DNA of 64,000 nucleotides from Candidatus Zipacnadia bacterium (GTDB lineage: Bacteria > Armatimonadota > Zipacnadia > Zipacnadales > Zipacnadaceae): NCBI GenBank assembly GCA_029820565.1, contig JALGUR010000003.1, positions 67,304 to 131,303 on the forward strand, given 5' to 3'. Below, piece by piece: positions 4,117-21,834 of the stretch. The notes below the pieces were generated by a model. That model was not told the DNA's origin. It ran no database searches and saw nothing but the letters and a program-made list of their open reading frames with translations. The position numbers and the translations under genes were made by a program. Every line of letters starts with the position of its first letter. Within the stretch, counting starts at the first letter, position 1.

Positions 4117-4222
4117 TAAATATGGTCAACACACACAGTTGTCGGGGTAGTGGTCGGCACAAGGGCAATTGCAGTCTGCGGGCAAAGAGAAATAGCCTGA
4201 CGCCAGCCCGGTAGAATATATT

Positions 4223-4273: not shown

Positions 4274-4415
4274 TTGGTGAATCTGGTGCTGTAGGAGCGG
4301 CATCTCTGCCGCGAGGGACTTCGCTGGACGGATGCCTCTCTGACGATAGATTTTCGCAACAGGCTTAGCAGTCAAACCAACGAATTGCAGCAGTAGATAA
4401 GGAGTTCACCGATAG

Positions 4416-7400
4416 ATGCCAGCGCCGTTTGTCCATCTGCACGTCCACTCCGAATATAGTCTGTTAGACGGCGCTTGCCGTCTATCGCAGTTGGTAGAGC
4501 AGGTAGCCGGGTTGGATATGCCGGCGGTGGCCCTGACCGACCACGGGGTGATGTATGGGGCCATTGATTTCTACAAGCACTGCCGAGCCGCTGGGGTAAA
4601 GCCGATTATCGGCTGCGAGGTATATCTGGCCACGCGCACTCGTTTTGACCGCTCCACCGCTGAAGACCGGAATGCTTACCATCTGGTGCTGCTGGCTGAA
4701 AACCTCCAGGGGTATAAGAACCTGATGAAACTGGTCAGTGCCGCGCACCTGGAGGGCTTCTACTATCATCCCCGAGTGGACTTTGAACTCCTGGGCAACC
4801 ATAGCGAGGGTCTCATCGCCCTCAGCGGATGTCAGCAGGGCTTGATTGCCACTGATATACTCCAGGATAGATTGGCCGCGGCTCGCCAGCACTGTGAGTT
4901 GTTCAAGGAATTGTTCGGGCCGGACAATTTCTACCTGGAGTTGATGAACCACGGCCTGGCGGAGCAGCAGCGGGTAATTGCGGCCAAGTTGCGGCTGGCT
5001 GATGAACTTGACTTGCCCGTGGTGGCCACCAATGATGTCCACTACCTCAACCAGCAGGATGCTGAGGCCCACGATGTGCTGCTGTGCATCCAGACCCAGT
5101 CCACCTGCCAGCAGGCCAACCGATTGCGCTTCCCCGGCGACCAGTTCTATCTGAAGTCAGCGGGCCAGATGAACGAGGTGTTCGGCGAGATACCGGAGGC
5201 GCTGAGCAACACGCTGGAAATCGCTGACCGCTGCAATGTAGAGTTGGAGTTAGGCAATTTGATGCTACCCCATTTTGCCGTGCCCACGGGACACGACCTG
5301 AACAGTTATCTGCGGGAGTTGTGTGAGCAGAATATTGAGGTGCGCTATGGCTCACCGCGCCCCGAGGTAATTCAGCGACTGGATTATGAACTGGATGTCA
5401 TTGCCCAAACTAACTACGCAGGTTACTTTTTGATAGTGGCTGACTTCATACGAGAGGCCAAGGAGCGTGGTATCCTGGTCGGCCCAGGGCGTGGCTCAGC
5501 CACCGGTAGTATTGTGGCGTATCTGCTGGACATCAGCGAGATTGACCCGCTACGGTACGGGCTGATATTTGAGCGGATGCTCAACCCGGAGCGGGCCAGC
5601 CCGCCGGATATTGACTTGGACTTCCCCGATGACCGCCGGGAAGAGATCATTGAATATGTAAAGGAGAAGTATGGGCGGGAGCGGGTCGCACAGGTAGTTA
5701 CCTTCAATACGCTGGGGGCACGGGCGGCCATCCGTGATGTAGGCCGGGCTATGGAAGTTCCCTTGAAGAAAGTGGATACGCTGGCCAAGTTAGTGCCCTT
5801 TGGCCGGTCGCTTGACAATGCATTAAAGTTGGTTGCTGAGTTGGCTGAGGCGGTCCAGGAAGATGAGGAAACGGCCCGACTGCTGAGCACTGCCCAGAAT
5901 CTGGAGGGCCTGGCGCGACACGCCTCGGTGCACGCCGCCGCTGTGGTTATTGCTGATGCTCCGCTAACTGAGTATGTTCCCCTGCGCGGCGAGAAAGATG
6001 GCACGGTCACCACCCAGTACGCCATGGGGCCGATAGAGGACGTGGGACTGGTGAAGATGGATTTCTTGGGCCTTAAAACCCTTACCGTTATTCAGCGGAC
6101 TGTGGAGGCGGTGGCTGACAATCACGGGGTAGAAATTGACCTGCTCAACCTGCCCCGGGATGACCCCAAGACATACCAACTGCTGTGCGCAGGGGATACG
6201 GTGGCGGTATTTCAGTTGGAAAGTGAGGGGATGCGCAGCCTGCTGCGGCAGTTGCAACCGGAGCGGTTTGAGCACATAATCGCGGCCGTGGCCCTATATC
6301 GCCCCGGGCCGATGCAACATATTGACACCTACTGTGCCCGGCGTCACGGGGAGCCGGTGAAGTATCCGCACCCGGACCTGGAGCCAATTCTGGCCGAGAC
6401 CTATGGCATAATTACCTATCAAGAGCAAGTGATGGAGATTGCCTCGATCCTGGCCGAGTTCAGTATGCCTCAGGCGGAAGTGATTATGCGGGCTATGGGC
6501 AAGAAGGACCACGAGAAGATGGAGCAGATGAAGCCGCTATTTATGCAGGGGTGTGTTGATAACGACGTATCCCAAGGGACGGCCCGCGAAATCTACGCGC
6601 GGATGGAGAGTTTCGCCTCGTATGGCTTTAATAAATCTCACGCCGCGGCCTATGCCCTGGTGGCCTACTGGACGGCGTATCTGAAGGCCAACTATCCGGC
6701 GGAGTTTATGGCCGCCCATCTGTCCACGGTGATGGATAGCAGTGAGGATGTGGCTAAGGCGGTGACCGAATGTCGGCGGTTAGGGCTACAGGTGCGGCCG
6801 CCTTCGGTCAATCGCAGTCAAGCGCATTTCGCCGTAGAGGGCACTGAGATTCTATTTGGCTTGGCGGCTATCAAGAATTTGGGTACGCCTACCGCGGCGG
6901 CGATCGTGGGCGAGCGTGACAGTGACGGCCCCTACCTGGGCTTGGCTGATTTTTCTCGTCGGCTGCCCGCTGAGAAAGTATCTGTTGCTTCGGTCAAAGT
7001 GCTCATCCAGGTGGGAGCCTTTGACGAGTTTGGCCAGCGCAATAGTCTGCTGGCCGCGGCGGATAGTGTGTATGCGGCGGGCCAGAAATACCAGCAAGAC
7101 CAGGCCGTAGGGCAAAGTTCATTGTTCGGAGGCAGTCAGCCGGCCGCTGACCAGTGGCCCGAGCCGCCGCTGCCGGACGTGCCGGCTATGACCGAGGAGC
7201 AAGTACTGGGACTGGAGAAGGAACTGCTGGGCCTGTATCTGTCCAGCCACCCGCTGGTCAAGAACCAAGAGCGGGTAGAGCAGTGTACTACGGCGTCAAT
7301 TGAGGAGTTGACTGAATTCGCCGATGGCAGCCGAGTGGTGGTAGGCGGCGTCATCGCCGAAACCAAGCGCCACATTGACAAAAACGGCGACTTGATGATG

Positions 7401-8003
7401 TTCCTGACGCTGGAAGGGTTGGCCGAGCAGGTGGAAGTAACGGTGTTGGCCTCGGCCTACGAGACCTGCCAGGAGAATCTGGAAGAGGGTAACCTCGTGG
7501 TAATGGCGGCCCGCGTGGACCGGCAACTGTCCCGCTCGGGCAACGATGACGAGGTGAAACTCTTGGCTGACGACGTTGTACCGCTGGATGAAGCCCAACT
7601 GGTCTCGCCGCGGCAGAGAAAGCAAGCTGAGCAGGGTCGGCACGAGGAGGCGCGGGGATCCGCCGAACAAGCACCCCCACCTGCGGCCCCCCTCTCTATC
7701 CCCCCGCAAGCGGGGGGAGATAGGGGGGAAAGTCGGCGCACCGGCCCGGCGCCGGCCCCGCGCACGGTTATCATTGAATTGGACGGGCCCCAGACTGATG
7801 ACCACACGCTTGCTTCTCTGAAGGAGGTTATGCGTCGCTACCAGGGTCCACAGCCGGTAGTGCTGCGGTTTACCGGTAATGGCCAGCAGCGGCGGGTAGA
7901 CTTGGGCGAGAACTACACCGTCAACTGCAGCGAGGAATTCCCCATCCAGGTCCGCCGCCTGCCCGGAGTCCTTACGCTGTGGGAGGAAGAGACGGCGAAG
8001 TAA
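4416..8003 (+). CDS. dnaE: DNA polymerase III alpha subunit
   Basis: 1195 aa. PHP N-terminus (FVHLHVHSEYSLLDG), pol III alpha core motifs and an OB-fold region. AAGGAG SD upstream. Confidence 0.97.
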   Translation: MPAPFVHLHVHSEYSLLDGACRLSQLVEQVAGLDMPAVALTDHGVMYGAIDFYKHCRAAGVKPIIGCEVYLATRTRFDRSTAEDRNAYHLVLLAENLQGYKNLMKLVSAAHLEGFYYHPRVDFELLGNHSEGLIALSGCQQGLIATDILQDRLAAARQHCELFKELFGPDNFYLELMNHGLAEQQRVIAAKLRLADELDLPVVATNDVHYLNQQDAEAHDVLLCIQTQSTCQQANRLRFPGDQFYLKSAGQMNEVFGEIPEALSNTLEIADRCNVELELGNLMLPHFAVPTGHDLNSYLRELCEQNIEVRYGSPRPEVIQRLDYELDVIAQTNYAGYFLIVADFIREAKERGILVGPGRGSATGSIVAYLLDISEIDPLRYGLIFERMLNPERASPPDIDLDFPDDRREEIIEYVKEKYGRERVAQVVTFNTLGARAAIRDVGRAMEVPLKKVDTLAKLVPFGRSLDNALKLVAELAEAVQEDEETARLLSTAQNLEGLARHASVHAAAVVIADAPLTEYVPLRGEKDGTVTTQYAMGPIEDVGLVKMDFLGLKTLTVIQRTVEAVADNHGVEIDLLNLPRDDPKTYQLLCAGDTVAVFQLESEGMRSLLRQLQPERFEHIIAAVALYRPGPMQHIDTYCARRHGEPVKYPHPDLEPILAETYGIITYQEQVMEIASILAEFSMPQAEVIMRAMGKKDHEKMEQMKPLFMQGCVDNDVSQGTAREIYARMESFASYGFNKSHAAAYALVAYWTAYLKANYPAEFMAAHLSTVMDSSEDVAKAVTECRRLGLQVRPPSVNRSQAHFAVEGTEILFGLAAIKNLGTPTAAAIVGERDSDGPYLGLADFSRRLPAEKVSVASVKVLIQVGAFDEFGQRNSLLAAADSVYAAGQKYQQDQAVGQSSLFGGSQPAADQWPEPPLPDVPAMTEEQVLGLEKELLGLYLSSHPLVKNQERVEQCTTASIEELTEFADGSRVVVGGVIAETKRHIDKNGDLMMFLTLEGLAEQVEVTVLASAYETCQENLEEGNLVVMAARVDRQLSRSGNDDEVKLLADDVVPLDEAQLVSPRQRKQAEQGRHEEARGSAEQAPPPAAPLSIPPQAGGDRGESRRTGPAPAPRTVIIELDGPQTDDHTLASLKEVMRRYQGPQPVVLRFTGNGQQRRVDLGENYTVNCSEEFPIQVRRLPGVLTLWEEETAK
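7687..7728. repeat. Imperfect GC-rich palindrome inside the dnaE C-terminal linker
   Basis: CCCCCCTCTCTATCCCCCCG-caag-CGGGGGGAGATAGGGGGG. It encodes APLSIPPQAGGDRGES in frame. Confidence 0.55.
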
Positions 8004-8039
8004 TCAACAACCCAACGCTGAGAGAGGGAGCCGCTCACT

Positions 8040-8969
8040 ATGACGGAAGCCGACTTCGGCAGCAACCATATTAGCGTTGTAGAATCGCCGTGGGAAGCGA
8101 GATTCGTCTCGTTGGTGCGGTCCGTTGAAGAACAACTGATGATAGCTTCGCCATTTATCGCGCGCGGCGCCGTGGAGATTCTAACAAATGAATTGGGGAA
8201 GATGACTATCTCCAGGGATTTTCAACTAGTCCTTCTAGCCAATTTCAGCATCCCCAATTTAGCTAATGGCTCAGTTGACGCCGCCTCAATAGCTGACCTC
8301 ATGGCGTCAATACCGCATGTTCGTGTGCATCATCTACCGGGCCTGCATGCGAAAGCATACATAGCAGACCACCACACGGCGGTGGTCACGTCGGCGAATC
8401 TCACGATGGGTGGTTTGCGGAATAACGTCGAATACGGAGTCAAGATCAAACTTCAGCCTATCGTGCGCGCAATCAAGCAACACATGGAAAAATACGCAGA
8501 ACTGGGCGCCATATTGCCATTCGAGGAAGTGCGACGCTTCGGTTGTGCAGCCGCGGAACTCCGAGATTTGCGCAGGGAAGTAGAAGAATCTGGACGAAAG
8601 AGATTGCGGGAAGAACTGCAGCACCGGCTCGATGCAGCGAATCTACAGCTACTCCGGCGACGTGCTCACGAAGAGACTACGAATAGCATATTTGCGCCGA
8701 CCGTACTCTACATATTGCACGAAGGCCCTATGAAGACCGTGGATATAAATCGTAGAGTCCAGAGTATTCACCCTGATTTGTGTGACGATGCAATAGACAG
8801 AGTAATTGACGGCGTGCACTTTGGGAAAAAATGGAAGCACTACGTACGTAATGCCCAGCAGTATCTGAAACGCAACGGGCTTATTCGACGTGAAGGCAGG
8901 CATTGGATGTTGACGACTTTAGGCACACAAGAATTTGGTCTCATTATCTCTCGGGGAGAAAGTGTTTAA
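8040..8969 (+). CDS. PLD-family (single HKD) nuclease-like protein with C-terminal Mrr_N-like winged helix
   Basis: HKD motif HAKAYIADHHTAVVTSANLT (nt 8346-8405). Coiled-coil linker. The C-terminal segment (ILHEGPMKTVDINRRV...YLKRNGLIRREGRHWMLTTLG) resembles an Mrr N-terminal wHTH. GC is visibly lower than the flanks. Confidence 0.75.
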   Translation: MTEADFGSNHISVVESPWEARFVSLVRSVEEQLMIASPFIARGAVEILTNELGKMTISRDFQLVLLANFSIPNLANGSVDAASIADLMASIPHVRVHHLPGLHAKAYIADHHTAVVTSANLTMGGLRNNVEYGVKIKLQPIVRAIKQHMEKYAELGAILPFEEVRRFGCAAAELRDLRREVEESGRKRLREELQHRLDAANLQLLRRRAHEETTNSIFAPTVLYILHEGPMKTVDINRRVQSIHPDLCDDAIDRVIDGVHFGKKWKHYVRNAQQYLKRNGLIRREGRHWMLTTLGTQEFGLIISRGESV

Positions 8970-9025
8970 TTGGACATCGATTAGAAGATGCAAAAGGTCA
9001 GGTCAGACTGCTGGGAGGATCGCAA

Positions 9026-9409
9026 ATGGTCTACCTCAACTGCGCCAAAGATGCGCTGTGGTTAGTAGAGGTTACTGCAAACTACGACCTGTCAAATAGG
9101 GATAGAGATCTGATAGCAGAAATTGCGAGCGAAGAGGCCCGAAAGTCAAGAGGAGCCTACTCCTTTATTGTCCATGGCATTGTAGAAAGCAACACGAGTT
9201 CTACGCTCCTCGTGGAAGCCTGCCAGACGGCACTCAATAACCTACTATTGGTACTCTCCGATAATCTCGCCTATGATATCAGTTGGACTCGCTACGATAA
9301 AGAGAAATGGCAGGTGTTTCACGCCGCTGACGGAAGCCCGCGGCGGGCTAAGGTTTTGATAGATTTAGAGCAGATAGATGAAGAATTGCAGTATTATATC
9401 GAATTCTGA
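9026..9409 (+). CDS. Hypothetical 127-aa partner of the PLD-wHTH gene
   Basis: ORF 8903..9409. ATG 9026 lies 6 nt after GGGAGGA. No recognisable family. Same low-GC block. Confidence 0.5.
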   Translation: MVYLNCAKDALWLVEVTANYDLSNRDRDLIAEIASEEARKSRGAYSFIVHGIVESNTSSTLLVEACQTALNNLLLVLSDNLAYDISWTRYDKEKWQVFHAADGSPRRAKVLIDLEQIDEELQYYIEF

Positions 9410-9465
9410 GGGGGAACGCATAGGCCACAATAGTTATGTAGATTGCTATTAGTGGGGGAGGGCTT

Positions 9466-10785
9466 ATGGCTAATATTATTGACATAATTGATGCTCGGGA
9501 CGATGGCGGTTCGGCACTGCAGGCGCTGCGCGAGCGGTCGGTGGTTGAAGTGGCGGGGGAAATTGAACAGGATGTGCGCCGCATAGTGGAGGATGTGCGG
9601 GCGCGGGGCGATGCGGCCTTGATTGAGTATGAGCAGCAGTTTGACTGCCCTACTTTGACCGCCGAGCGACTGCAGGTGACGGATGAGGAGATTCAGGCCG
9701 CCTATCAACAGGTCTCTGATAAGCAATTAGGGGCGCTGCGCCGGGCCAAAAACAATGTCTACGAGTTTCACCTGCGCGCTCGGCCCGCCTCGTGGCTGGA
9801 CAATTTTGAAGGCGTATGGTTGGGCCAGCGGATAACCCCGATTGAGTCGGTCGGCATCTACGTGCCGGCGAGAAGCGCCCCGCTGCCCTCCACGGTGTAT
9901 ATGTGTGCTATGCCGGCGCAAGTAGCCGGTGTGGAGCGTCTGGTGATATGCACACCACCGCGCCGGGACGGCTCGGTGGACCCGCTGACCCTACTGGCCG
10001 CGGCCGAGTGTGACGTGGATGAGATATATCGGGCCGGTGGGGCCCAGGCGATTGCGGCGCTGGCCTTTGGCACGGAAAGCATCGCAGCGGTCAATAAAAT
10101 CGTCGGTCCGGGCAATCCCTGGGTGACCCTGGCCAAAAAGTATGTTTTCGGCGTGGTGGGGATTGACTCGTTAGCCGGCCCCAGCGAGATCCTGGTCATT
10201 GCGGATGAGACTGCCCAGCCGGCCCTGGTGGCCGCTGACCTGCTGGCTCAAGCCGAGCACACCGGGGATAATACAGTGGTGCTGCTCACTGATGCCGAAA
10301 GTCTGGCTGAGGAAGTGGGCGAAGAGTTGAGCAGGCAGATTCAGACTTTGGACCGGGGCGAACTGATGCGCCAGTCACTGAACGAATATGGGGCGATTGT
10401 GTTAGTGCGGGATCTGCACCACGCGGCCCAGTTAGCCACTGAGATTGCCCCCGAACATCTGCAACTTATGGTAGCCGACCCCTTTGCCCTGCTGGCGGAA
10501 GTAGACAACGCCGGTTGCATCTGTCTGGGGCCGCTGTCGGCCGTGGCATTGGGCGATTATGCCGCTGGGCCCAGCCATGTCCTGCCCACTATGGGCACGG
10601 CGCGTTTTTCTTCGGGGCTGTCCGTGGATGATTTTGTGAAAAAATCCTCATTGATTTATGCTACCCCACCGGGCCTGCGGCGCGTAGCGGATGACGCTGT
10701 TGAACTGGCCGAGGCCGAGGGCCTCTCCGCGCACGCCCAGGCCATCCGGCGCCGGCAAAGTGATGATACAACGACTTGCAGGTAG
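9466..10785 (+). CDS. hisD: Histidinol dehydrogenase
   Basis: 439 aa with typical HisD motifs (GPGNPWVTLAKK, AGPSEILVIADE, QAEH). Confidence 0.95.
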   Translation: MANIIDIIDARDDGGSALQALRERSVVEVAGEIEQDVRRIVEDVRARGDAALIEYEQQFDCPTLTAERLQVTDEEIQAAYQQVSDKQLGALRRAKNNVYEFHLRARPASWLDNFEGVWLGQRITPIESVGIYVPARSAPLPSTVYMCAMPAQVAGVERLVICTPPRRDGSVDPLTLLAAAECDVDEIYRAGGAQAIAALAFGTESIAAVNKIVGPGNPWVTLAKKYVFGVVGIDSLAGPSEILVIADETAQPALVAADLLAQAEHTGDNTVVLLTDAESLAEEVGEELSRQIQTLDRGELMRQSLNEYGAIVLVRDLHHAAQLATEIAPEHLQLMVADPFALLAEVDNAGCICLGPLSAVALGDYAAGPSHVLPTMGTARFSSGLSVDDFVKKSSLIYATPPGLRRVADDAVELAEAEGLSAHAQAIRRRQSDDTTTCR

Positions 10786-10885
10786 GCGGCCCATCGTTTA
10801 TAATCTCACTATTGGAGACTGTTGCCAGAGGTAATTGAGGAACGGTAGAGTAAGTTGTGGAAGTTGAGGCCGTAGCGCGGTACTC

Positions 10886-10920
10886 ATATCGGGGCAGAGA
10901 TGCCCCTCCTACAAGTTGTT
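10886..10920. repeat. REP-like hairpin ATATCGGGGCAGAGATGCCCCTCCTAC
   Basis: Near-identical to 60787..60815. Stem GGGGCA/TGCCCC. Lies in the hisD-hisB intergenic region. Confidence 0.6.
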
Positions 10921-10983
10921 GCAACAGTCAATGCCGCTGCCAGTCTGTCCCCATCTCAGCAGTACCCAAGTAGGTGAGGCTAA

Positions 10984-11574
10984 ATGTCACTGCGAACTGC
11001 CCAACTATCACGCGAGACTGCGGAAACTAACATCGAAGTGCAGATCAACCTGGACGGCTCCGGTGAAGGTGAGATAGACACCGGGGTGGGCTTTTTTGAC
11101 CATATGCTCTCGCAACTCGCCAAGCACGGCCGCTTTGACCTGAATATAGAGGCACGGGGAGACCTGGAGGTTGACGCCCATCATACGGTGGAAGATGTAG
11201 GGATAATCCTCGGTCAAGCCCTCAAGGAAGCAGTCGGGGATAAGCAGGGAATGGTACGCTTCGGGGCGGCCAGTTGCCCGATGGATGAGGCGCTGGTGGC
11301 GGCGGCGATTGATTTTGGCGGCCGCGGGCACCTGGAATATGGGCTGAAACTGCCTGTGGCGAACGTCGGCGATTTTGACACCGAATTAGTCCGCGAATTC
11401 TTCATAGCGGTGGCCCACAACGCCGGTATGAGCCTTCACCTGACCCAGCAGGCCGGCATCAATACGCACCACATAATTGAGTCGGCCTTCAAATCCTTCG
11501 CCCGCGCTCTGGATGAGGCGACCAGATTGGACGAGAGGATTAGTGGGGTGCCGTCCACGAAGGGCCAACTGTAA
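10984..11574 (+). CDS. hisB: Imidazoleglycerol-phosphate dehydratase
   Basis: 196 aa. RETAETNIEVQINLDG and GFFDHML motifs. Confidence 0.95.
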   Translation: MSLRTAQLSRETAETNIEVQINLDGSGEGEIDTGVGFFDHMLSQLAKHGRFDLNIEARGDLEVDAHHTVEDVGIILGQALKEAVGDKQGMVRFGAASCPMDEALVAAAIDFGGRGHLEYGLKLPVANVGDFDTELVREFFIAVAHNAGMSLHLTQQAGINTHHIIESAFKSFARALDEATRLDERISGVPSTKGQL

Positions 11575-11649
11575 AGGGCGCTGCCATCCTGAGATTGTGG
11601 GAAGTGGCTGATATAAGGTAGTCCTCCCCCGTGTTATAGGTGGTTAGTT

Positions 11650-12261
11650 GTGATTGCACTGATTGACTATGGAATGGGCAATTTGGGCAGTGTGGATAAG
11701 GCACTGCGGCGGGTCGGCGGCGAGGTGCAGATGACCAGTGACCCGCAGGTCATCAGCCAGGCGGCGGGCGTAGTGCTGCCGGGCGTGGGGGCCTTTGACG
11801 ACTGTATGGACGGCCTCCACAAGCGTGGGCTGGCCGAGGCGTTGCGCCAGATTATCCGGGCCGGCAAACCGTTCCTGGGCATCTGCCTGGGCCTGCAAGT
11901 GCTGTTTGACCGTAGTGAAGAAGGCGAGAACGAAGGGTTGGGGATTATTCCCGGCGAAGTGGTGCGCTTCAAGCATAATCTGAAGATACCGCAGATTGGC
12001 TGGAACCAAATCAATGTCCGAAGCCAGGCACCACACCTGGCAGGAATCAAAGACGGGGTGTGGGTCTACTTCGTCCACTCCTACTACGTGGTGCCTGAGG
12101 ATGAGTCAGTGATCGCTACGACTACCGACTACGGCTACGAATTCTGCTCGTCAATCTGGCGCGAGAATATCTTCGCCTGCCAGTTCCACCCCGAAAAAAG
12201 CCAGGACGTAGGGCTGAAGATACTGGAGAACTTCACGCAGTTTCTTGGGCAGACGCATTAG
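11650..12261 (+). CDS. hisH: Imidazole glycerol phosphate synthase, glutaminase subunit
   Basis: GTG start. IALIDYGMGNLGSV, GICLGLQ (catalytic Cys) and FHPEKS motifs. Confidence 0.95.
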   Translation: MIALIDYGMGNLGSVDKALRRVGGEVQMTSDPQVISQAAGVVLPGVGAFDDCMDGLHKRGLAEALRQIIRAGKPFLGICLGLQVLFDRSEEGENEGLGIIPGEVVRFKHNLKIPQIGWNQINVRSQAPHLAGIKDGVWVYFVHSYYVVPEDESVIATTTDYGYEFCSSIWRENIFACQFHPEKSQDVGLKILENFTQFLGQTH

Positions 12262-12288
12262 CCCTACTTTCGAGGAGGCCCGGTAGTT

Positions 12289-13896
12289 ATGCAGATAAGA
12301 AACTTGATTAAGTCAGTGGGTGAGGCCGAAGTCCGCCACATCCTGGAGGCACTCTGTGAGGGGCGGTATCGGTTCCACGCCGGCGTCAGTCTTTCGCAGA
12401 TATTTGATCCTGAGGAGCCTGGGTGGACGAAAGAGGAGAAGCGCATGATCTTCCTGAGCAATGTCGACTGGCTGGTTACGGATGACTCGCCTGAGGAGAA
12501 GCCGTTGTTGGCGATAGAGGTAGACGGCCCCCATCACAAGGAGGGTGAACAGCAGCGGAAAGACCGAACGAAAGATGCCATATTCGCTAAGGCGGGACTG
12601 CCTTTGTTACGACACACTACTGAGCAGGTGGGGACCAAAGTAACAGAGCGAGAGATCCGAAGATGGGTTCTAATGCACTTCTGGCTACCTCCGGTCCTTG
12701 AGGCAAGCGACGATCTTGCGGTAGACCTGAAGAACCTATCCCTAGCGTTGGCCGGTGCCCTATCTGACGAGGTCCTCGAGTTTCTCAGAGTCAGAGAAAG
12801 GTTCAATAGCCTCTTTTGGCCGGACGTCTTTGCCGATGAAATACGCAGCGACCAAGCCATGGACAGGGTGCGTGAACTTGCGTCTTTCGCCTCAAAATAC
12901 ACGTTCCCGGATATACCTACACCGGAAGAGACACTTCGGGCGGACCGCGTAGTGAAAGAGATTGCTCTGCAGTTCCCAGATGGCACGACGTTCCGTAGCG
13001 CGGCACAATGTTTGAACACTGAGAGCCTGTACCCTAATTGGGTTGCCTTCCAGCGCGGAGCTATTGATGTCATGAGCCACGCCATCGAAGCATACGAGGA
13101 CGGTTCCTTTCGCCCCGATCCAACGGCGGAGTTTCCTCCTGAGTCTGACGAAGCAACGGAATATGACATCTGGCGGGACTTTTCCGTAGACTGGCGCCGG
13201 TCGGTGGAAGACTTTACCTACCAAAGACTCCGCTCAATACGCCAAGACCTCGAAGGGCGACGCAACGAGGTGTGGCCCGTCTCGTCGAAGCGCGAGTTCT
13301 TTTACCCACCTGTTGCTGGACTCCAGTGCGCCCACCGATATTGTTTCCAAACAACGGATGCGCCAGAGCAACGAGTCGTTTACGGAGTTGCAGAGGTATT
13401 TCGGGACGATGTGCGACAGAAAGGCGCCGCTTCGCAGCTTCAGCTCGCCCGTGACGTTGCGAAATACGACGCGCTGGTTCAGATACTTGACCTGGTGAAT
13501 CCAGAGGTGGATGTACGCACGACTATCGCGCCGGATATCGCCGTACGCGAGAGCGACACTGAGACTGACCGGCAGCGGAAAGCGCGCCATATTTCCGGCT
13601 CGGACTACGACTTGGTGACGATCACCAGCGAAATCAAGCTTACCAACCCCAAGCAGGAACAGATTCGGCTCATCGCCACCCAGAAGGTGGAAGGTGAGGT
13701 GACTGAGGCCAGCGATGAGGCCAAGTTCAGCAAGTTGAGCGAGGAAAGCTTCGGCCTTAATCCCACCAGCCGGATCAAGTGGGATGTGAAGCTATCTGGT
13801 GGCGAGGAAAAGAGCTTGACCTATACCTACCAGGTTTATGTGAAAGACAACTCTGCTGGCAAACCACAAAGGCATGATAATAATCCCTGCGATTGA
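12289..13896 (+). CDS. 535-aa protein: DUF2726-like (PD-(D/E)xK-type) N-terminal domain plus large uncharacterised C-terminal region
   Basis: N-terminus has the pattern SVGEAEV...VSLSQIF...NVDWLVTD...[11 protein letters not shown]...[19 protein letters not shown]. This matches DUF2726 as I recall it. GAGGAGG SD upstream. The stop overlaps the hisA start by 23 nt. Confidence 0.7.
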
Positions 13897-14599
13897 CCTA
13901 TCTGAGGGCCAGGTGGTGCGGTTGCGGCAGGGGGATATGCGGCAAAAGACCGTGTATTCCGATGACCCTGCGGCGCAGGCGCAACTATGGGAACAGCAAG
14001 GGGCCGAAGTTATCCACATTGTGGACCTGGATGGGGCGATAAGTGGCTACCCGGCTAATCTGGATGGTGTGGAAAACATTGTGGAAAACGTGGGAGTTCC
14101 TGTGGAAATGGGCGGCGGGCTGCGGACTGCCGATGACGTGGCACAAGTACTGGCGATAGGAGTGCGCTGGGCCATAATGGGGACGGCGGCCCTGCGTGAC
14201 CGGCCTGAGTTGGAGGAGGCATTGGACCGGTTCGGCGAACGGATTATTGTCGGCATTGACGCCCGCGACGGCAAAGTAACCGTAGAAGGGTGGACCGAAG
14301 GCAGCGAGATAGATGCGGTCTTCCTGGCGCGGCAGATGGAAGAATTGGGCGTGGAGCGGCTCATCTGCACCGATATTGCCACTGATGGGATGCTGCAAGG
14401 CCCTAACCTGGCGGCGATGCGGACCCTGGCCGAGGCAGTGCAGATCCCCATTATCGCCTCCGGCGGGGTGAGCACTACCCAGGACATCCGCGCGTTGCGG
14501 GAGCTGGAACCGTTAGGGGTAATTGGCTGCATCATCGGACGGGCGCTCTATGACGGGACACTGTCTTTAGGTGAGGCGCTGGCCGCCGCTTCACAGTAG
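13874..14599 (+). CDS. hisA: ProFAR isomerase
   Basis: [22 protein letters not shown]-terminus and typical (beta/alpha)8 HisA motifs. Confidence 0.95.
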
Positions 14600-14613
14600 T
14601 TGTGCCTGTGGGC

Positions 14614-14642
14614 TTGACATCTGAGGGAGGGCAATGTATAAT
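14614..14642 (+). promoter_or_regulatory. Consensus sigma70 promoter of the TA cassette
   Basis: TTGACA at 14614-14619, 17 nt, TATAAT at 14637-14642. Lies just after the hisA stop. ATG 14653 is 11 nt downstream of the -10, so the leader would be near-leaderless. Confidence 0.7.
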
Positions 14643-14652
14643 ATAGGAACGT

Positions 14653-15006
14653 ATGGGAGATAAAGCAATGGAAACGAGGGCAAGGATCAGTGACAAGCGG
14701 TGGCTCAGTCCCCCAGAGGCGGCGGAGTACCTGGGGATAGCAGTGAGCACCTTGTACCGGTGGCGCACGGAGGGGCGCATACGATTTTATCAATTCGGGG
14801 AACGCGTGAGCCGGATTAAGCGCGATGAACTGGATGGCCTGGCGCGACCTCAGCCCTCTGAGGGTACGGCGGCTCTGCAGGAATGGCAGCAGCAAGCCGA
14901 GACGCTTTTTCGCGAACTATATGAGCAATATGGTGTTGGCGACGATTCTGCCGAGGTCATCCGTGAAGCCCGTGAGCAGCGCTCTCGGCAACTGGGCGGG
15001 CGATAG
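14653..15006 (+). CDS. Excisionase/MerR-type HTH protein, putative antitoxin
   Basis: WLSPPEAAEYLGIAVSTLYRWRTEGRIRFYQFG is an HTH_17-like motif. An alternative start is ATG 14668 after GGGAGA. The gene ends 4 nt before the PIN gene. Confidence 0.75.
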   Translation: MGDKAMETRARISDKRWLSPPEAAEYLGIAVSTLYRWRTEGRIRFYQFGERVSRIKRDELDGLARPQPSEGTAALQEWQQQAETLFRELYEQYGVGDDSAEVIREAREQRSRQLGGR

Positions 15007-15009
15007 CGC

Positions 15010-15456
15010 ATGGCGGAGCGCATCTGTCTGGACGCCAGTGTGGCCGCCAAATGGGTCTTTCCGGAGGTCCACTCCGAAGAGGCGAGGGAAATCCAGACGG
15101 ATGTAGCCGATGGGCGCACCCAGATAGTAGTGCCGGACAGTTTCTTTATTGAATGCGTCAGTGTGGTCTATCATAAACATCAGCAGAGCCTGGCCGATAT
15201 GGAGCAGGCCCAGGCGGCCCTCGGTGTACTGCGGCAGGTCCCGGCCAACGTGACGGCGATCCGCGACGTCTCTCACCAGACCATGACCCTGGCCGAACGT
15301 CTAAACATCACTGTCTGGGACGCTGCCTATCTGGCTGTCGCTGAACATCACAACTGCGACTTGTGGACCGCCGATAAAAAACTTGCCCGGCAGACACAAC
15401 CGCACTTTGATTGGGTGAAGCTGCTGGGCACTGATGAATGGACTGAAGCGAGGTGA
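15010..15456 (+). CDS. vapC: PIN-domain ribonuclease toxin (VapC-like)
   Basis: Carries the typical acidic residues (ICLDASV..., [22 protein letters not shown]). 148 aa. Tightly coupled to the upstream HTH gene. Confidence 0.85.
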
Positions 15457-15463
15457 CGTTATT

Positions 15464-16246
15464 ATGTTAGCCAAGGTGGACGAAGGTCGCGTGGTTAAAG
15501 GTATAAAGTATGTGGACCATGTGGACGCCGGCGACCCGGTGGAGCAGGCCCAAGAATATGACCGCCAGGGGGCCGATGAACTGGTCTTTCTGGACATCAC
15601 CGCCTCTGTGGAAGGGCGGGAGATAGTGCTGGATATGGTCAGGCGGGCGGCGGAGTGTATCTTTATACCGCTGACCGTCGGGGGAGGTATCCGGACTGTT
15701 GAGGATATTCGCCAGGTTCTTAAGGCGGGCGCGGACAAGGTCTCTATGATGACGGCAGCGGTGCAGAATCGGGACCTGGTCAATGAGGCAGCAGGGCGCT
15801 TTGGCAACCAGTGCATTGTGGTCGCTATTGACGCCCAGCGTGTGCCGCGCGAGGGACGGGATGACTCGGATTTGGGGTATGCTCCCGACGAAGAGATTGA
15901 ATGGAAAGTATGGACGCACGGGGGGCATAAACCTACTGAGGTCGACGCACTGCAATGGGCCGGGGAGGCGGCCGCGCGTGGGGCGGGGGAGTTGCTGGTT
16001 ACCTCAATGGATGCCGATGGAACCAGGGCGGGCTATGATATAGAACTGCTGCGGCGCATCTCGCAAGAAGTGAGCATTCCGGTCATTGCCTCGGGGGGCG
16101 CGGGTAACATTGACCATATGTATGAGGCGCTCACCGCCGGCCAGGCGGATGCGGTGTTAGCGGCCAGCATCTTCCATTTCCGCCAATACACCGTCGGGCA
16201 GGTCAAAGAAGAATTGGCTGAGCGGGGCATTACCGTGCGCCGGTAG
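15464..16246 (+). CDS. hisF: Imidazole glycerol phosphate synthase cyclase subunit, atypical N-terminus
   Basis: ATG 15464 lies 8 nt after GAGGTGA. The protein is HisF-like throughout ([30 protein letters not shown]). It starts [13 protein letters not shown] and lacks the canonical RIIPCLD segment. Confidence 0.88.
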
Positions 16247-16251
16247 AGAGA

Positions 16252-16638
16252 GTGATTATGATGGACTTGTCGGCCCTGGAGTTTGATCAAAAAGGCTTGA
16301 TACCCGCAGTTATCTGTGACCATCAGAGCAACGAAGTGCTGATGGTAGGTTATATGAACGAGGAGGCGGTCCAGCGTACTGTGGCGAGCGGCCAGACTTG
16401 CTTCTGGAGCCGTTCGCGACAGCAGTTTTGGGTAAAAGGTGAGCACTCAGGGCACAAGCAGTACGTCAAGTGGATTCGTTTAGACTGTGATGGCGACTGC
16501 CTGCTAATCGGCGTGGAACAGGTGATAGGCGCTTGCCACCTGGGCTATCGCAGCTGCTTCTTCCGCGAACTGCGGGAGGACCGCTGGGAAGTAGTTGCTG
16601 ATAAGGTCTTTGACCCGGATGGAGTTTATGAGAACTGA
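16252..16638 (+). CDS. hisI: Phosphoribosyl-AMP cyclohydrolase
   Basis: GLIPAVICD..., [17 protein letters not shown] and CDGDCLL motifs. HisI domain only, no HisE. Confidence 0.92.
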
Positions 16639-19543
16639 GCAGGGCTCGGTATACAGTGGCCTAAGAGGCGCCGGCCTGGTAGTATGGGGCTTGGTGGTGG
16701 GACTGGCAATGGTCGCGACGATCTGCGCGGCCCAGGTAGAGCCCTCTCGCGCTGAGCAGGCTCAGGTGTGGCTGGAGTACGGAGTGGGACAGGCTCAGCA
16801 GGGCGACTACCAGAGCGCTGTTGAAGCACTCAAACGGGCTATCCAAATTGACCCTACGTTTCAGCCGGCTTACTACAATCTGGGTCTGGTTCTATACCAA
16901 GTGGGCAAGTCGGCGCCGGCGGCTCACTACTTCCAGGAAGCCCTCAAGTTATCTCCCACTGACTTACAGGCGCAGCGGGGCCTGGGGCTGGCCTACATTG
17001 CCCAAGAGAAGTACGACCGCGCGGCGCAACTATTTCAGGACCTGCTACGGACTACTCCTGATGATGTAACGGTGAAATTGCAACTGGGCCGCTGCTATCT
17101 GGCTCAGGGCAAGCCCCGCCAGGCTATCCCCCTGCTTGAGGAGGCCGCGGCAGCGCGCCCGGATCAGCCGCAGGTGCACCTGTATCTGGGGCAGGGCCTG
17201 GCTGCTGCTAAGAGAGTAGTGGAGGCTGAGATGAGCCTGGGCCGGGCTCTGAAATTGCAGCCTGATCTTGAGCCGGCTAAACTGGTGCTACTTAAATTAT
17301 ACATAGATGCGGGCCGATTCATTTCAGCCCAGCCGCTGGTTGAGGAACTGCTGGCGGACCATCCCCAGGACCGGGACTTACTGCTGGCTCAGATTAAGAT
17401 TTACGAAGGGTTAGGCCTGGACCGCGAGAGGCGTAAGGCGGAGGAGGCGCTGCTGGCAGTACTGCCGGCCCAGCAGGCGGTCGCCGGGCGAACGCAACTC
17501 GCGGCGCAATACTTTGCGGCCGGCCGCTATGAACAGGCTCTGAACCAACTTGATAAGGCACGTACGTTTCGCCCCCATGACCCCGAAATTGCTGAGGCGA
17601 TGGCCCAATGCCATCTGAAACTGGGCCAACCCCAGCGCGCTGTTGAACTCCTGGAGGATCGGTCCAAATATGAGGGAGGTAGCGTTGGCATATTTGTTAC
17701 TCTGGGCGACGCTTATGCCACTCAAAGTCAATACGAGAAAGCCCTGAGTGCGTACCAACAGGCGCTGACGATTGACCGCGACTTGCCAGTGGCCCTGGAG
17801 GGAGCGGCCCAGGCAAGTGGGAAACTGGGCAAGTCAGAGCAGACGGTCCAATATCTACGGCGCATTGTGGCAATTGTGCCCGATAGTGATCACCAGCGCC
17901 TGCGGTTAGCCGATCAACTAACCCTGGTGGGCGAATGGGGCGAGGCAATGCGGCAGTATGTAGCGGTTACCGCCGAAGGCTGCGATGAGAAATTAGTGGT
18001 GGAGAGCCTATCGCGGCTCATTTTGCTGGCAACTCAAACGGGTAATACAGCCTTTGAGATGCAACTGCGGCAACAGCGCCAGCAACTCACTGCGGAGGAC
18101 CCTGATAGCCGCCTGATTCAACTTATGAACCAGCAAGATAGCGGGGAGAAGCGTGAGCAGCAGTTGCGCGAGATGCTGGCGGAGCACCCTGAGAATCCCG
18201 ACTTGAAGGTAGCCCAGGCGGCCCTATTGATGAAGGCAGGTGAAAGTCAGCAGGCCGCAGCGATACTTGAAGAGGTGTTGACCGAGCAGCCGCTGCACGG
18301 GCCGGCCAATTATCTGCAGGCCCAGGTGCATCTGCGTCAGGACCAGCCGGCCACTGCCTTTGACTTTCTCAAGCGGGCTATCCTGGCTCAACCCAGCGCC
18401 CGCCGGGCTTATGAGGATTTGCTAATCTGTGCCGAAGCGACTGGGCAGTTGCCCGCCGCTACCGATTTTCTGACGGCGGTGCTGGCAGATGCTATCAGTG
18501 CCGGAGAGATGCCCGAAGGCGCGGTGAAGACCTTGCTTATGTCCCTAGCAGCCGCCTACCAGCGACAGGACGGGGCCGAGCGGGCGGCTCGGGAGTTAGC
18601 CAGACTCTCGGACGCCTATCCCCAGCGGCCAATTATGGCAATAGCAGCGGCCCGCACCCTGGTGGCCGCCGACCAAATCACCCAAGCCGTCAAGTATTAT
18701 TCGCGAGCGGCGCGTGTGCCGCGGTATGTTGATGCTTTGGTGGAGGCTACTGAAGTGCTGCTGGATAGCAGGCCCGCCGCGGCGGCTAAACCGGCTACCC
18801 AGTATCTGGCTCGGGTAGCCGGGGACGAGCAGGCAATGGCTTGGGTAGCGGAACTGCTGGTTAGGGGCCAGTCCATAGAGTCTGAGGAAAAAGAGGCGGT
18901 GCGGCGGCTGTTACACAGCCAGCCGGGCACGGCCGCCTACCAGTTTGCCCAAGTGGACCTGGCTGAGGTATTGGGGCAACTGCCCCAGGCTGAGGCCAGA
19001 TTAGCGGCCCGAGTGGCAACCCAACCGCAGAATACTGCTACCGCTGCGGGCTTGGCTTATGCCCTATGGCGGCAAGGGCGAGCGACTGAAGCCCTAATGC
19101 GACTGGATACGGTGTCTGCCTGCGGTGAACCTGCCGTGCAGGCTCTGAGGGCCAGCGTCTTGGCGGAACTCGGTCAGACTCAGCCGGCTGTAGAGGTGGC
19201 GTCAGAAGTGCTACTGGCTGCTCCGGGCCAGCCGCAGGTTTCGCTCCTGAGGGCGAGATTGCTTGCAGAGGATGAGGCTTACGAAGAGGCTTTGTGGGAA
19301 TATTGCCAAGTGTTGGCGAGGGAGCCAACTACTAAGGCGGCAGTCACGGGCGTGACGGAGTTGGCCAGAGGCCGGGACGTGGAACTATCTGTGATACTGA
19401 CAGCGCTGAGTCAGGTCTATGCGGTTTGCCCGCAGCCGGGGGTGATACGAGAATTGGCCGCGGGTCTGGGCGACCAGGAACTGATACACAAGTGGCTGGC
19501 CACACATCCGCAGGTAGCGGAACAAAGGGCAATTAGCCAGTAG
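16628..19543 (+). CDS. Large TPR-repeat protein with N-terminal membrane anchor or signal
   Basis: ORF 16595..19543. ATG 16628 follows GGATGGAG and overlaps the hisI stop. TPR-like A/L/Y-rich repeats run throughout. Confidence 0.8.
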
Positions 19544-19554: not shown

Positions 19555-21834
19555 TCAGCGGGCGGTGTAAATGTGCACCTCGTGGGGGGCGAAACTATCC
19601 TGGAAACTGCCGTCAGCGCTGGCGGGCAACTGATAGCTTTCAAACATTGTCTGGAGGGCCTGGCCCGCAGCGGCTGGCACCTGAAAATGGCAGACCAATC
19701 CCTGATCAGAGGTATTGACTGCTACTACATACAGACCTTCGTTGTACTGCCATGTCGCCAGATGTAAGGCCCCTTCAGCGGCGGCGGGCAGGAGCGTGCG
19801 CTGCCCGTTTAAGATGACGGGGGCCAGCCACTGCAGTTGTCGGTTCAGGCGAGGGAAAGCCTGCCAGAGTTCGGGCGCATCCTGAGGCAGGTTAAAGGCC
19901 CTGGTACCGGGATAGGCCGGTATCTGATAACCGTAGTAGATAAGCCCCTTGGCCCCATGCATCAAGGCCAGGTAGGTCATAGCCCGCAGTTCGGCAACCG
20001 TAGGCGCCCGTCCCGGGCCCTGGATGTCCAGGGCAGCATCGCTGTACCAGCCGGGGCCGGAGGCCTGAATGGCCGCCCAGACTGGCTTGGAGTCCGCGAC
20101 GGCTTGCTGGGCGGCATTCAGTATTTGCCCGACACCAGTTACGGGCGAGGCAGGTATGGGCAGCGACCAGCCGACCACTATATCGCAGAAATCGCTGTAT
20201 AATTTCAGCAGTGATGGGGAGCTAAGCGCCATTAGGGTCGGATGGTGGGGACTGACTTGCTGCAAGCCCTGGTATAACTGCTCCATCGCGGCAGGCGGAA
20301 CTGACCTCTGATCGGGCCGGGCCAACACGTACCAACCCAACAGTGCCGGGTCATTGCCGAACTTGTCCTGAAGATTCTGCCAAAAGTCGCTCCCCGGCGG
20401 CGAGCCCGTGGCGCTGCTCAAGGTAGGTGAGGCGACCAGCAGTGATAGACCTAACTCATTGGCCTTCTCGGCCAAAGTGGAACTGGTCCGGCGAGAAGGA
20501 ACCACGACAAAGTTAAACCCGGCGGAGGCTATTGGGGATAGATTTTCAGGTTGCATTACGTGGTACAGGCCGCGGGGCAGTACGCGCGTACCATTTATGC
20601 ATAGGCTATTGTGGACATCGTAGCCCACTTCGCTGGGGGAGGGAGAGAGCCGGCGGACGGGCAGTTTTGTGGTATACCGACGGCTCGGCGTAAATTCGGC
20701 GGCCAGGCTCACCGTGTAATCCCCGGTCAGCATCGCCTTAAGAGGGAGTTTGATAGTGAAGCGGTTGGGGGTAGGTCGTTGGATGGCGTCACTGTCCTCA
20801 GTGACGTGGAGGTCCAGGGCGGCGATGCGGGCGGAGAGTTGGGCGGTTTTGGCTATTCGCTCAGTAGCGTTTATTCGGCCGGCGATCTCGAGGAACTGGA
20901 TGGGGATGCTACTGAGTATGGTCTGGCGAAAGGCAGGCTGGCGGCAGTGAGCCTCGATCAGTCCGGCGACGCCAATTTGCTGATGTTCGTATATGTCCCC
21001 GGTAGTAGGATCACTAACGATAATTTGCAGGTGGTGAGAGCGCTGCAGGGCGAAGCGGTACGGTATTGATAATAGCCCCTGCCCGTCGGCAGCGATGGTG
21101 GCCTGGCGCTGGGTGTGTATGCCCCGGCCGTCCTCGTCCTGGGCGATGAGCACAGCCTGGACCTGGCGGACGCGGTCAGTATGGTTGGTCAGGCGCAGAG
21201 TAGTGCGAAGCCTATCAGGAAACTCGTGGAGAATACCGGCTTCCTGGATTTGGGCCGATAGTTGATCCGGATAGGGACGCAGTGCCGCCTGGTCAATATA
21301 GAGGCGCCCGCGGCCTGTAACGCGCACCACGACTATGACCTGCTGCGTCCCCACAACTGGCTCAAAATACCATGACAACAGATTCCAATCCTGGGAGCGG
21401 GGAATAGGTTGGACTTCGGCTTGGAGGTAAGGTGTCTGCCACTCGCGCTGGTGGAAGTCCTGGCCAAAGGTAATTAGGGCGACCTCGGCCTGCGGCTGCT
21501 CATGCGTCCGGGCGTGACAAGTGAACAGCAGTCGGTCAGTGGGTAGATGACCAACGTCTATCGGGGTGCAGAACACGCCGAGTAGCGTGGGCTGAAGCCG
21601 TCCCTCCAGCACCAGGCACTTCTCACTTTGGTAGCCGCCGCCAATCAGTTTGGCCTCGCCCTCGGGCGTCCCGCCCGGGCTACGGGTGAACCAATTAGCA
21701 GCGCCACCGTGCTCGTCGGGCCGCTCAAAATCGCCGTTGAGCAGCAGATTGTCGGCAGCTACGGGTGAGACTACCGCTGTCAGCAGGATGAAGACTGCCA
21801 GACGCACTCCTAAAACTGGATGCCGAGTCATCAT
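19555..21834 (-). CDS. Secreted 759-aa protein, possibly carbohydrate-binding or glycosidase-like
   Basis: Signal peptide. NLLLNGDFE is a CBM-like N-terminal motif. The function call is weak. Confidence 0.6.
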   Translation of the reverse strand: MMTRHPVLGVRLAVFILLTAVVSPVAADNLLLNGDFERPDEHGGAANWFTRSPGGTPEGEAKLIGGGYQSEKCLVLEGRLQPTLLGVFCTPIDVGHLPTDRLLFTCHARTHEQPQAEVALITFGQDFHQREWQTPYLQAEVQPIPRSQDWNLLSWYFEPVVGTQQVIVVVRVTGRGRLYIDQAALRPYPDQLSAQIQEAGILHEFPDRLRTTLRLTNHTDRVRQVQAVLIAQDEDGRGIHTQRQATIAADGQGLLSIPYRFALQRSHHLQIIVSDPTTGDIYEHQQIGVAGLIEAHCRQPAFRQTILSSIPIQFLEIAGRINATERIAKTAQLSARIAALDLHVTEDSDAIQRPTPNRFTIKLPLKAMLTGDYTVSLAAEFTPSRRYTTKLPVRRLSPSPSEVGYDVHNSLCINGTRVLPRGLYHVMQPENLSPIASAGFNFVVVPSRRTSSTLAEKANELGLSLLVASPTLSSATGSPPGSDFWQNLQDKFGNDPALLGWYVLARPDQRSVPPAAMEQLYQGLQQVSPHHPTLMALSSPSLLKLYSDFCDIVVGWSLPIPASPVTGVGQILNAAQQAVADSKPVWAAIQASGPGWYSDAALDIQGPGRAPTVAELRAMTYLALMHGAKGLIYYGYQIPAYPGTRAFNLPQDAPELWQAFPRLNRQLQWLAPVILNGQRTLLPAAAEGALHLATWQYNEGLYVVAVNTSDQGLVCHFQVPAAAGQALQTMFESYQLPASADGSFQDSFAPHEVHIYTAR

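Follow-up and report, generated by a model that had tools for sequence, protein, structure and literature searches.

Putative nuclease and toxin–antitoxin genes at three junctions of a dnaE–histidine biosynthesis gene string in a Candidatus Zipacnadia bacterium

In a Candidatus Zipacnadia bacterium, a gene string that runs from orf319 and dnaE through the histidine biosynthesis genes hisDBHAFI to a gene for a large TPR protein contains small, mutually unrelated genes at three of its junctions: an island with a PLD-type nuclease gene between dnaE and hisD, a gene with a DUF2726 domain between hisH and hisA, and a putative toxin–antitoxin (TA) cassette of the HTH_17 and PIN families between hisA and hisF. 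The string lies in a 64,000-nt stretch of contig JALGUR010000003.1 (assembly GCA_029820565.1, positions 67,304–131,303 of the forward strand), which was analyzed as a whole and is called the window hereafter. We consider it probable, at about three chances in four, that the string is old and co-directional and that small, horizontally acquired genes entered the three junctions in at least four events filtered by selection. We report the identities of these genes and the boundaries, relative ages, and polymorphism of the insertions, and from them we infer nuclease and toxin activities, co-transcription with the his genes, and retention of the inserts in a kind of safe harbor.

Gene identities in the window were taken from the listing of open reading frames (ORFs) and Pfam scans. 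The loci of relatives, designated by L numbers, came from HisA-anchored scans of genomes and metagenomes and, for L162–L167, from look-ups of the DUF2726 and PLD proteins. The features of the string are as follows.

3157–4116, + strand: orf319.
4416–8003, + strand: dnaE, DNA polymerase III alpha (Pfam PHP, DNA_pol3_alpha, finger, and HHH_6).
8001–9454: PLD island, 1,454 bp of low GC, delimited by alignment to island-free strains.
8040–8969, + strand: PLDc_2 protein of 309 aa (Pfam PLDc_2, 7.9e-10).
9026–9409, + strand: orf127, an ORFan of 127 aa preceded by a Shine-Dalgarno sequence (8903–9409 from a TTG in the ORF listing).
9466–10785, + strand: hisD (Histidinol_dh, 9e-162).
10984–11574, + strand: hisB (IGPD, Pfam).
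11650–12261, + strand: hisH (GATase domain; 70–79% identity to the hisH of relatives).
12289–13896, + strand: chimeric DUF2726-DUF4139 ORF of 535 aa (DUF2726 above the Pfam cut-off).
13495–13845, + strand: fragment of a DUF4139 gene, its last 117 codons (74% amino acid identity to P0123/L161).
13874–14599, + strand: hisA (starts MIIIPAIDL; His_biosynth, 2.6e-79).
14614–14642, + strand: predicted sigma-70 promoter TTGACA-17-TATAAT (12/12 consensus match).
14653–15006, + strand: HTH_17 putative antitoxin (HTH_17, 2.4e-12; TIGR01764; start possibly the ATG at 14668).
15010–15456, + strand: PIN putative toxin, VapC-like (PIN, 5.4e-12).
15464–16246, + strand: hisF (Pfam; 21-bp in-frame deletion after 15475).
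16252–16638, + strand: hisI, PRA-CH domain only (Pfam).
16595–19543, + strand: large TPR protein, the conserved right flank (Pfam).

A preliminary description of this DNA had noted three modules between dnaE and hisI, all on the strand of the operon, and the absence of hisC, hisG, and hisE. The Pfam scans and the ORF listing agree on the modules, and the Pfam scans found none of the three missing his genes in the string. No convincing intrinsic terminator was detected in any + strand intergenic spacer of the string, which is compatible with read-through transcription. With non-his genes lying between his genes on the same strand and no terminator between them, the string belongs to the his operons that contain foreign or ORFan genes, as defined in PMC8305728. 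Rfam and tRNA scans of the window returned no family and no tRNA, so the window has no attachment-site-like tRNA.

The HisA-anchored scans place the window among metagenome-assembled genomes (MAGs) of Candidatus Zipacnadia/Armatimonadota (the class Zipacnadia is described in PMC10290634), and an exact-sequence look-up of the window HisA gave no match. One Zipacnadia MAG, L004, has the clean order orf319-dnaE-hisD-B-H-A-F-I-TPR with no extra genes, and L003, L089, L090, and L091 have a partial clean backbone, some of them without hisH and hisF. The left flank of the PLD island, dnaE, is conserved and adjoins hisD in L003, L004, L090, L162, and L165, and the TPR gene follows hisI in L001, L003–L006, L081, L085, L090, L091, and L162. 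Across the 160 related his loci scanned, none of the insert genes of the window was detectable.

The DUF2726 gene and the HTH-PIN pair are common to the window population and one relative only, L162, whose gene order is orf305-dnaE-hisD-hisB-hisH-DUF2726-hisA-HTH_17-PIN-hisF-hisI-TPR-orf757-methyltransferase, with no PLD island. Amino acid identity between the two is ~82% over HisA/F/I and 73–85% gene by gene against the window ORFs, and HisF of L162 is 88% identical to the intact allele of L167, a contig closely related to the window. Since PIN (81% identity) and HTH (73%) have diverged like the flanking his genes, the DUF2726 gene and the HTH-PIN pair must both have passed down vertically along with the operon after the window and L162 split. 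In L092 (a 1.5-kb fragment as close to the window as L162, at 84–85% identity), 13 nt separate hisA from hisF, and there is no TA pair. The window, L162, and L092 are monophyletic and form an unresolved trichotomy (119/102/79 of 300 bootstraps), so that the pair was either gained after L092 branched or cleanly lost from L092.

The clean string of L004 and the differing distributions of the modules (PLD polymorphic among strains, DUF2726 and HTH-PIN present in L162, HTH-PIN absent from L092) bear out the proposal that the three are unrelated and independent insertions. The synteny comparison also speaks to the idea that they are vertically inherited core genes: DUF2726 and HTH-PIN have indeed been vertical since the L162 split, but they are clade-restricted and not core. 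We find it quite unlikely that the modules are not selfish or defense inserts but vertically inherited, functional parts of the operon, for example regulators of histidine biosynthesis or replication or accessory factors of these processes. Such a role would agree with L162 having kept DUF2726 and HTH-PIN at matching junctions, with their his-like divergence, with the ~85% conservation of the DUF2726 N-terminal domain between the window and L162, and with the orientation of the TA promoter, which faces hisF and hisI and could serve as an internal promoter of the operon. It is at odds with the absence of all modules from the informative junctions of L004, L003, and L089–L091 and of HTH-PIN from L092, with an island that is strain-variable and compositionally foreign, with the unrelated contexts occupied by PLD homologs, and with PIN, HKD nuclease, and Vsr-like nuclease domains, none of which is known to be connected with the synthesis of histidine.

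The PLD island is a polymorphism among closely related strains. Contigs from sister JGI samples (L165, L166, and L167) were compared with the window by blastn and junction alignment. L165 and L166 are 98–99% identical to the window on both sides and island-free; L165 has 35 bp where the window has the 1,454 bp of the island, and dnaE of the island-free strains is nine codons longer. In L166, the 35-bp spacer is deleted together with the dnaE stop, giving a predicted in-frame DnaE-HisD fusion of 1,643 aa (L166:7100–7200, corresponding to window 7990–9470), an allele that may be real or an artefact. The contig from the third sister sample, L167, is 99.85% identical to the window and contains the island. 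Three allelic states of the dnaE/hisD junction are found among strains of 98–99% identity, and the same flanks hold differing or absent cargo, as in a variable-gene hotspot flanked by core genes. GC falls to 0.47–0.51 only over 8001–9500, and the GC content at third codon positions (GC3) is 0.53 in the island versus 0.66 ± 0.04 in the window genes, ~3 standard deviations lower; the GC3 of DUF2726, the DUF4139 fragment, HTH, and PIN is native-like. A repeat scan of the island found no target-site duplication and no terminal inverted repeats, with short matches at chance level, and no integrase was present.

Divergence between window positions 870–15475 and L165/L166 is patchy, ranging from 0 to 4% per gene, with 0–0.3% in the DUF2726 chimera, 3.4% in orf319, and ~4% in hisB, hisH, HTH, and PIN, a pattern that suggests inter-strain recombination or a mixed-strain consensus. 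This patchiness and the breaks of contigs at hisF and hisA would also be compatible with a chimeric metagenome assembly, the possibility that the preliminary description had asked to have checked. However, the hisH-DUF2726-hisA-HTH-PIN junctions are shared by the window, L165, L166, and L167 from three sister samples, the same junctions are found in L162, L163, and L164 (a different species, assembled in ENA, NCBI, and Logan), and the PLD junctions are present in both the window contig and L167. Because the junctions recur in independent assemblies, four of the population and three of the relative, a chimera is for all practical purposes excluded.

HisA aligns from its N-terminal residue 1 in relatives. 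The hisF of the window is without 21 bp (RIIPCLD) after 15475, which are present in L167, L162, and L092; judged by the HisF of Thermotoga, the missing residues include the catalytic Asp11 of strand beta-1. The contig of L165 stops exactly at the breakpoint of this deletion, a sign of heterogeneous strains or of a faulty assembly at that place; the deletion is either a real inactive or variant allele of the population or an assembly problem. An apparent disruption of hisA in L162 was dismissed, since a scaffold gap filled with Ns, whose two ends overlap, accounts for it. A relaxed or decaying histidine biosynthesis, under which the operon would tolerate junk, is highly improbable in our view. 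The hisF allele lacking seven codons and the dnaE-hisD fusion allele of L166 would fit it, but the his genes are intact and 76–88% identical to those of L162, their ratio of synonymous to nonsynonymous changes (~3–5:1) indicates purifying selection, and the apparent lesions meet an intact hisF in L167, a contig end in L165, and a scaffold gap in L162.

Two further observations concern his gene content in relatives. In L001, L003, L006, L081, L089, and L090, the string reads hisB-hisA-hisI, with neither hisH nor hisF; it seems that the genes for the two subunits of imidazole glycerol phosphate synthase either left the cluster together or never became part of it. In L086 (2266–3501) and L088 (2651–3898), hisA is directly followed by a hisD-like gene that is 40% identical to the hisD of the window and may be a paralog or part of a rearranged operon.

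At the hisH/hisA junction, what had been described as one DUF2726-like gene is a 535-aa chimera carrying 117 codons of a DUF4139 gene. It comprises a nuclease-like (Vsr/DUF559-like) DUF2726 region at residues ~1–130, a clade-restricted region at 131–402, and the DUF4139 3′ end at 403–519. The DUF2726 domain (PF10881) scores 50.7 bits against a cut-off of 24.7 over residues 12–117. Residues 1–404 match P0122, a 422-aa DUF2726 protein at the same junction in L162, at 41% overall and ~85% over the first 130 residues. Among 1.84 billion representative proteins, the full 1–404 region has only three homologs; the widespread part is the first ~115 residues, and 332 remote matches cover the DUF2726 domain only. 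A sequence search of the PDB with the chimera returned nothing useful.

Residues 403–519 of the chimera are identical at 74% of amino acids and 79% of nucleotides to residues 462–578, the last 117, of the DUF4139 protein P0123 from L161. The fragment is absent from P0122, and it was not seen in P0129, a 140-aa fragment possibly shortened by the end of its contig. By these alignments, the DUF4139 capture appears to be a second event at the hisH/hisA junction, specific to the window population. The window contains no full-length DUF4139 gene. In L161, which belongs to another MAG, the DUF4139 gene lies between RtcB and a metallophosphatase, and no closer donor was found.

The two internal inserts had been said to overlap or abut the downstream his gene. 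This applies to the DUF2726 ORF, which overlaps the hisA start by 23 nt, and to PIN in so far as it abuts hisF; it does not overlap it, as the actual start codon of hisF, an ATG at 15464 (MLAK...), lies 7 nt past the PIN stop, and the Shine-Dalgarno sequence of hisF lies within the 3′ end of PIN.

The HTH_17 gene lies upstream of PIN in the same direction, with 3 nt between its stop at 15006 and the PIN start at 15010, and the pair is also found in L162 and L165. PIN scores 46.8 bits against a cut-off of 23.6, with only 16.5 against 73.6 for the NCBIfam model of the VapC subfamily. Its acidic quartet (D8, E48, D104, D122) is invariant in the window, L165, and L162, and the nearest solved structure is the PIN protein PAE0151. 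The C-terminus of the antitoxin is strongly conserved. The TTGACA-17-TATAAT element is the only 12/12 sigma-70 match within 7900–16800; L162 retains its −35 box and the sequence downstream of it, and the element faces hisF and hisI as well. These features suggest a VapBC-like type II pair of putative toxin and antitoxin. Between strains, the counts of synonymous and nonsynonymous changes are 6:5 in HTH and 8:11 in PIN versus the ~3–5:1 of the his genes.

The pair resembles VapBC in having a small DNA-binding gene 3 nt upstream of a PIN gene with an intact acidic quartet, a strong predicted promoter of its own just upstream, and a patchy distribution. Unlike in VapBC, the putative antitoxin is of the HTH_17 type (excisionase/MerR-like) and not of the classical AbrB, RHH, or PHD folds, and the cassette is lodged within an operon for amino-acid biosynthesis, with its promoter reading into hisF and hisI. 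Membership in the MADS defense system was considered and rejected: HTH_17 scores 23 bits against the MAD1 cut-off of 80, and a mad2-like methyltransferase is 6 kb off on the other strand. That methyltransferase (21851–22837) belongs to the conserved backbone shared with L162. On the minus strand of the window, 19555–22837 encodes a 759-aa protein without a family match together with the methyltransferase, a 328-aa protein of the UPF0020/TIGR01177 type with a sub-threshold mad2-like PADLOC match; the two genes are also paired in L162.

The module upstream of hisD had been read as a pair of PLD and winged helix-turn-helix (wHTH) genes, but the wHTH forms a domain at the C-terminus of the PLD protein itself (residues 214–304), and there is no second gene of that kind. 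In an AlphaFold model built on a 55-sequence alignment (pLDDT 93.7), the protein consists of a nuclease domain (residues ~10–160), a helical hairpin (161–209), and the winged helix. PLDc_2 is matched at 39.1 bits (cut-off 27), and the winged helix gives a weak Mrr_N match (19 bits against 29.5). The HKD motif is intact (HAKAYIAD, residues 103–110; H103-x-K105-x4-D110), and among the 55 homologs H103, K105, and N120 are invariant and D110 nearly so. The top Foldseek match of the model is Nuc (1BYR; E 2e-7, TM(target) 0.76), the next ones being NucT, Zucchini, and the nuclease domain of SauUSI, and a profile search also touches SauUSI (7CLG) and BfiI (2C1L). A single Nuc-like domain is a type of fold that would require a dimer for one active site.

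More than 1,000 full-length homologs of this PLD-wHTH protein were found, of ~290 aa and 40–53% identical over 90% of their length, and the family is uncharacterized. Their contexts vary: one lies 3 nt after fumC, others stand alone amid housekeeping genes, and others lie between Uma2 and MTaX1/HNH genes. In L171–L174, the homolog P0047 has a nuclease-fold gene of the Uma2 family on one side and an MTaX1/HNH_2 gene on the other, with overlapping ends; this three-gene cluster is conserved in more than ten contigs and may be a defense module. A tblastn search of plasmid and phage collections with the PLD protein gave no match. The protein was also considered as DrmC of DISARM and rejected, with an NF038319 score of 62 bits against a cut-off of 133 and dnaE, an ORFan, and hisD as neighbors in place of DISARM partners.

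In the window, the PLD protein is a solitary nuclease with a wHTH, and no methyltransferase lies next to it. It would be a DNA endonuclease that works on its own in restriction or defense, possibly in a modification-dependent way. Like Nuc of pKM101, NucT, BfiI, SauUSI, and DrmC, it has one HxK(x)4D motif, and like BfiI and SauUSI it combines a nuclease domain with a separate DNA-binding domain. It differs from these proteins in its Mrr_N-like winged helix, joined through a long helical hairpin, and in having no helicase, methyltransferase, or DISARM partner nearby.

The second gene of the island, orf127, most likely starts at the ATG at 9026, behind a GGGAGGA Shine-Dalgarno sequence, and the same 127-aa gene is called in L167. 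It has no Pfam, PADLOC, or NCBIfam match; against 5.8 billion proteins, only three partial matches of ~30 residues each were obtained and no real homolog. No relative of orf127 stood beside PLD homologs in the contexts examined, and a two-gene system with orf127 as the wHTH partner was dismissed on both counts.

The string of the window is not the only one with occupied his junctions. L005 has a Phd/ParE pair at hisA/hisF, and L002 a different Phd/ParE pair, 29% identical to that of L005, just upstream of hisA, as well as two URO-D genes (11251–13691) and a sulfatase at hisA/hisF. A PD-(D/E)XK_3 (PDDEXK_3) nuclease gene occupies hisF/hisI in L083 and L085, a TPR-like gene and an FkbM methyltransferase occupy hisB/hisA in L001, and a 388-aa gene without an assigned family occupies hisH/hisA in L088. 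In Planctomycetes, an HTH_3 pair and a methyltransferase fragment lie at hisH/hisA on the opposite strand. A URO-D-family gene is also found at 22929–23987 of the window, 3.4 kb downstream of the operon, and the hisA/hisF cargo of L002 may therefore be rearranged neighbors and not a foreign insertion.

Counted by hand within Armatimonadota-like relatives, ~12 of 59 observations of his-type junctions were occupied versus 0 of 19 for neighboring non-his junctions of the same loci (one-sided Fisher p ~0.03), in a sample that is small, phylogenetically non-independent, and ascertainment-biased, with control junctions picked as conserved. The occupied his junctions amount to ~10 independent events, six of them of TA or nuclease type. 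The post-hoc chance that three modules would all fall in seven of the ~55 junctions of the window is ~0.002. The only other recognized TA-type gene in the window encodes a HicB-like antitoxin (745–1104), and other pairs of small ORFs (e.g., 45503–46158) match no TA families. The HicB-like gene is part of a run of small + strand genes upstream of orf319-dnaE (373–3013), together with a MarR-like wHTH gene (373–630) and four ORFs without a family; no HicA partner was recognized.

The claim that the operon is a safe harbor or an integration hotspot is no more than plausible: other TA and nuclease cargo does fill his junctions of relatives, but no site-specific signature (integrase, duplication, or repeats) was found. 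To call the arrangement unusual was an overstatement, since foreign or ORFan genes in his operons have already been described (PMC8305728, PMC10138114, and PMC1480536). A yefM-yoeB paper considered as a further precedent was set aside, as "histidine operon" occurs solely in its reference list.

A true hotspot, in which a feature of the site, or the nucleases through intronless homing, would direct the cargo, seems unlikely, and no finding points to it specifically. It would account for the hisH/hisA junction having been struck at least twice (DUF2726, then the DUF4139 fragment), for the three alleles of dnaE/hisD in sister samples, for the differing TA and nuclease genes in the his junctions of relatives, for the partnerless nuclease-fold proteins encoded by three cargo genes, and for the clean insert boundaries between highly conserved genes with no integrase. 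Yet the junction sequences have neither a common motif nor repeats, TA pairs do not belong to the homing elements, members of the PLD-wHTH family are found mostly in ordinary and varied contexts, the enrichment (p ~0.03) is weak, and survivorship under selection would explain orientation and placement without targeting. A more specific version, which we regard as quite improbable, is that the solitary nucleases (PLD-wHTH, DUF2726, and the PDDEXK_3 of relatives) spread as free-standing homing endonucleases, cutting empty junction alleles in related strains and being copied in through repair from the conserved dnaE or his flanks. The arrangement resembles that of free-standing homing endonucleases between conserved phage genes, homing activity here being purely speculative; if true, conserved operon junctions would be actively targeted chromosomal homing sites and not passive safe harbors.

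We therefore return to horizontally acquired genes entering an old string under selection, for which the following course can be proposed. In the older events, the HTH_17/PIN pair would have entered hisA/hisF with its own consensus promoter and the DUF2726-domain gene would have entered hisH/hisA; later, the DUF2726 gene would have acquired at its end, in frame, the 3′ part of a DUF4139 gene; and recently the PLD island would have replaced 35 bp between dnaE and hisD, its presence and absence still segregating in co-occurring strains. Entry may have been by rare illegitimate recombination, whereas homologous recombination within the conserved flanking genes may spread or remove the inserts in the population. 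Selection acting on an operon that is essential would let pass only those inserts that are co-oriented, free of terminators, and preserve the translation initiation of the next his gene, an expectation matched by the Shine-Dalgarno sequence of hisF inside the end of PIN and by the DUF2726 ORF overlapping the hisA start. Once inside, the inserts would be transcribed by read-through, and they would be hard to lose because an imprecise deletion would harm a his gene and, for PIN, also because of addiction. A safe harbor under selection is plausible in these terms, though weakly tested.

Several points weigh against this account. The island shows no mobility signature that would indicate how it entered, and that its polymorphism represents a gain is favored solely by its GC and its absence from L162, L003, L004, and L090. 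If HTH-PIN was cleanly lost from L092, the argument that inserts are hard to lose would be weakened. Selection on HTH and PIN is weaker than on the his genes, though not absent, and the enrichment of his junctions is suggestive at most.

Close parallels come from his operons termed heterogeneous, in which foreign ("alien") or ORFan genes are found (Fondi/Fani; PMC8305728, PMC10138114), and from the insertion of ORFan genes downstream of native operon genes, whose promoters they use (Price, Arkin and Alm 2006; PMC1480536). As in the former, unrelated genes lie between his genes on the operon strand, and some of them are kept at the same junction in relatives; as in the latter, ORFan genes follow native ones, whose promoter presumably drives their expression. 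Unlike in the his operons described, the cargo is of nuclease and TA type, three junctions are filled together, and one insert is polymorphic at 98–99% identity, which allows its age and boundaries to be read off directly. Like defense hotspots, dnaE/hisD has conserved flanks and variable cargo, and an integrase would be unneeded if spread occurs by flanking homology; unlike them, the sites are intercistronic spacers within an operon and the cargo consists of single small genes and not multi-gene islands.

The string is an instructive instance of operon dynamics already known and not a new type of system. It offers a clean and datable example of small selfish or defense genes entering an essential operon and persisting there without breaking it, and since the PLD insert segregates in near-identical strains, its empty site and exact boundaries are known. 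Most useful are the presence and absence of the PLD island with its empty site, the DUF2726-DUF4139 chimera, and the TA promoter embedded in the operon. The findings also draw attention to a family of more than 1,000 PLD-nuclease-wHTH proteins that behave as solitary nucleases of the restriction or defense type, and to a TA cassette with a consensus promoter directed toward hisF and hisI. Should the recurrence of TA and nuclease genes at his junctions in this clade stand up to a controlled test, it would lend support to the view that operon interiors are refuges for addiction and defense genes through selection against deletion.

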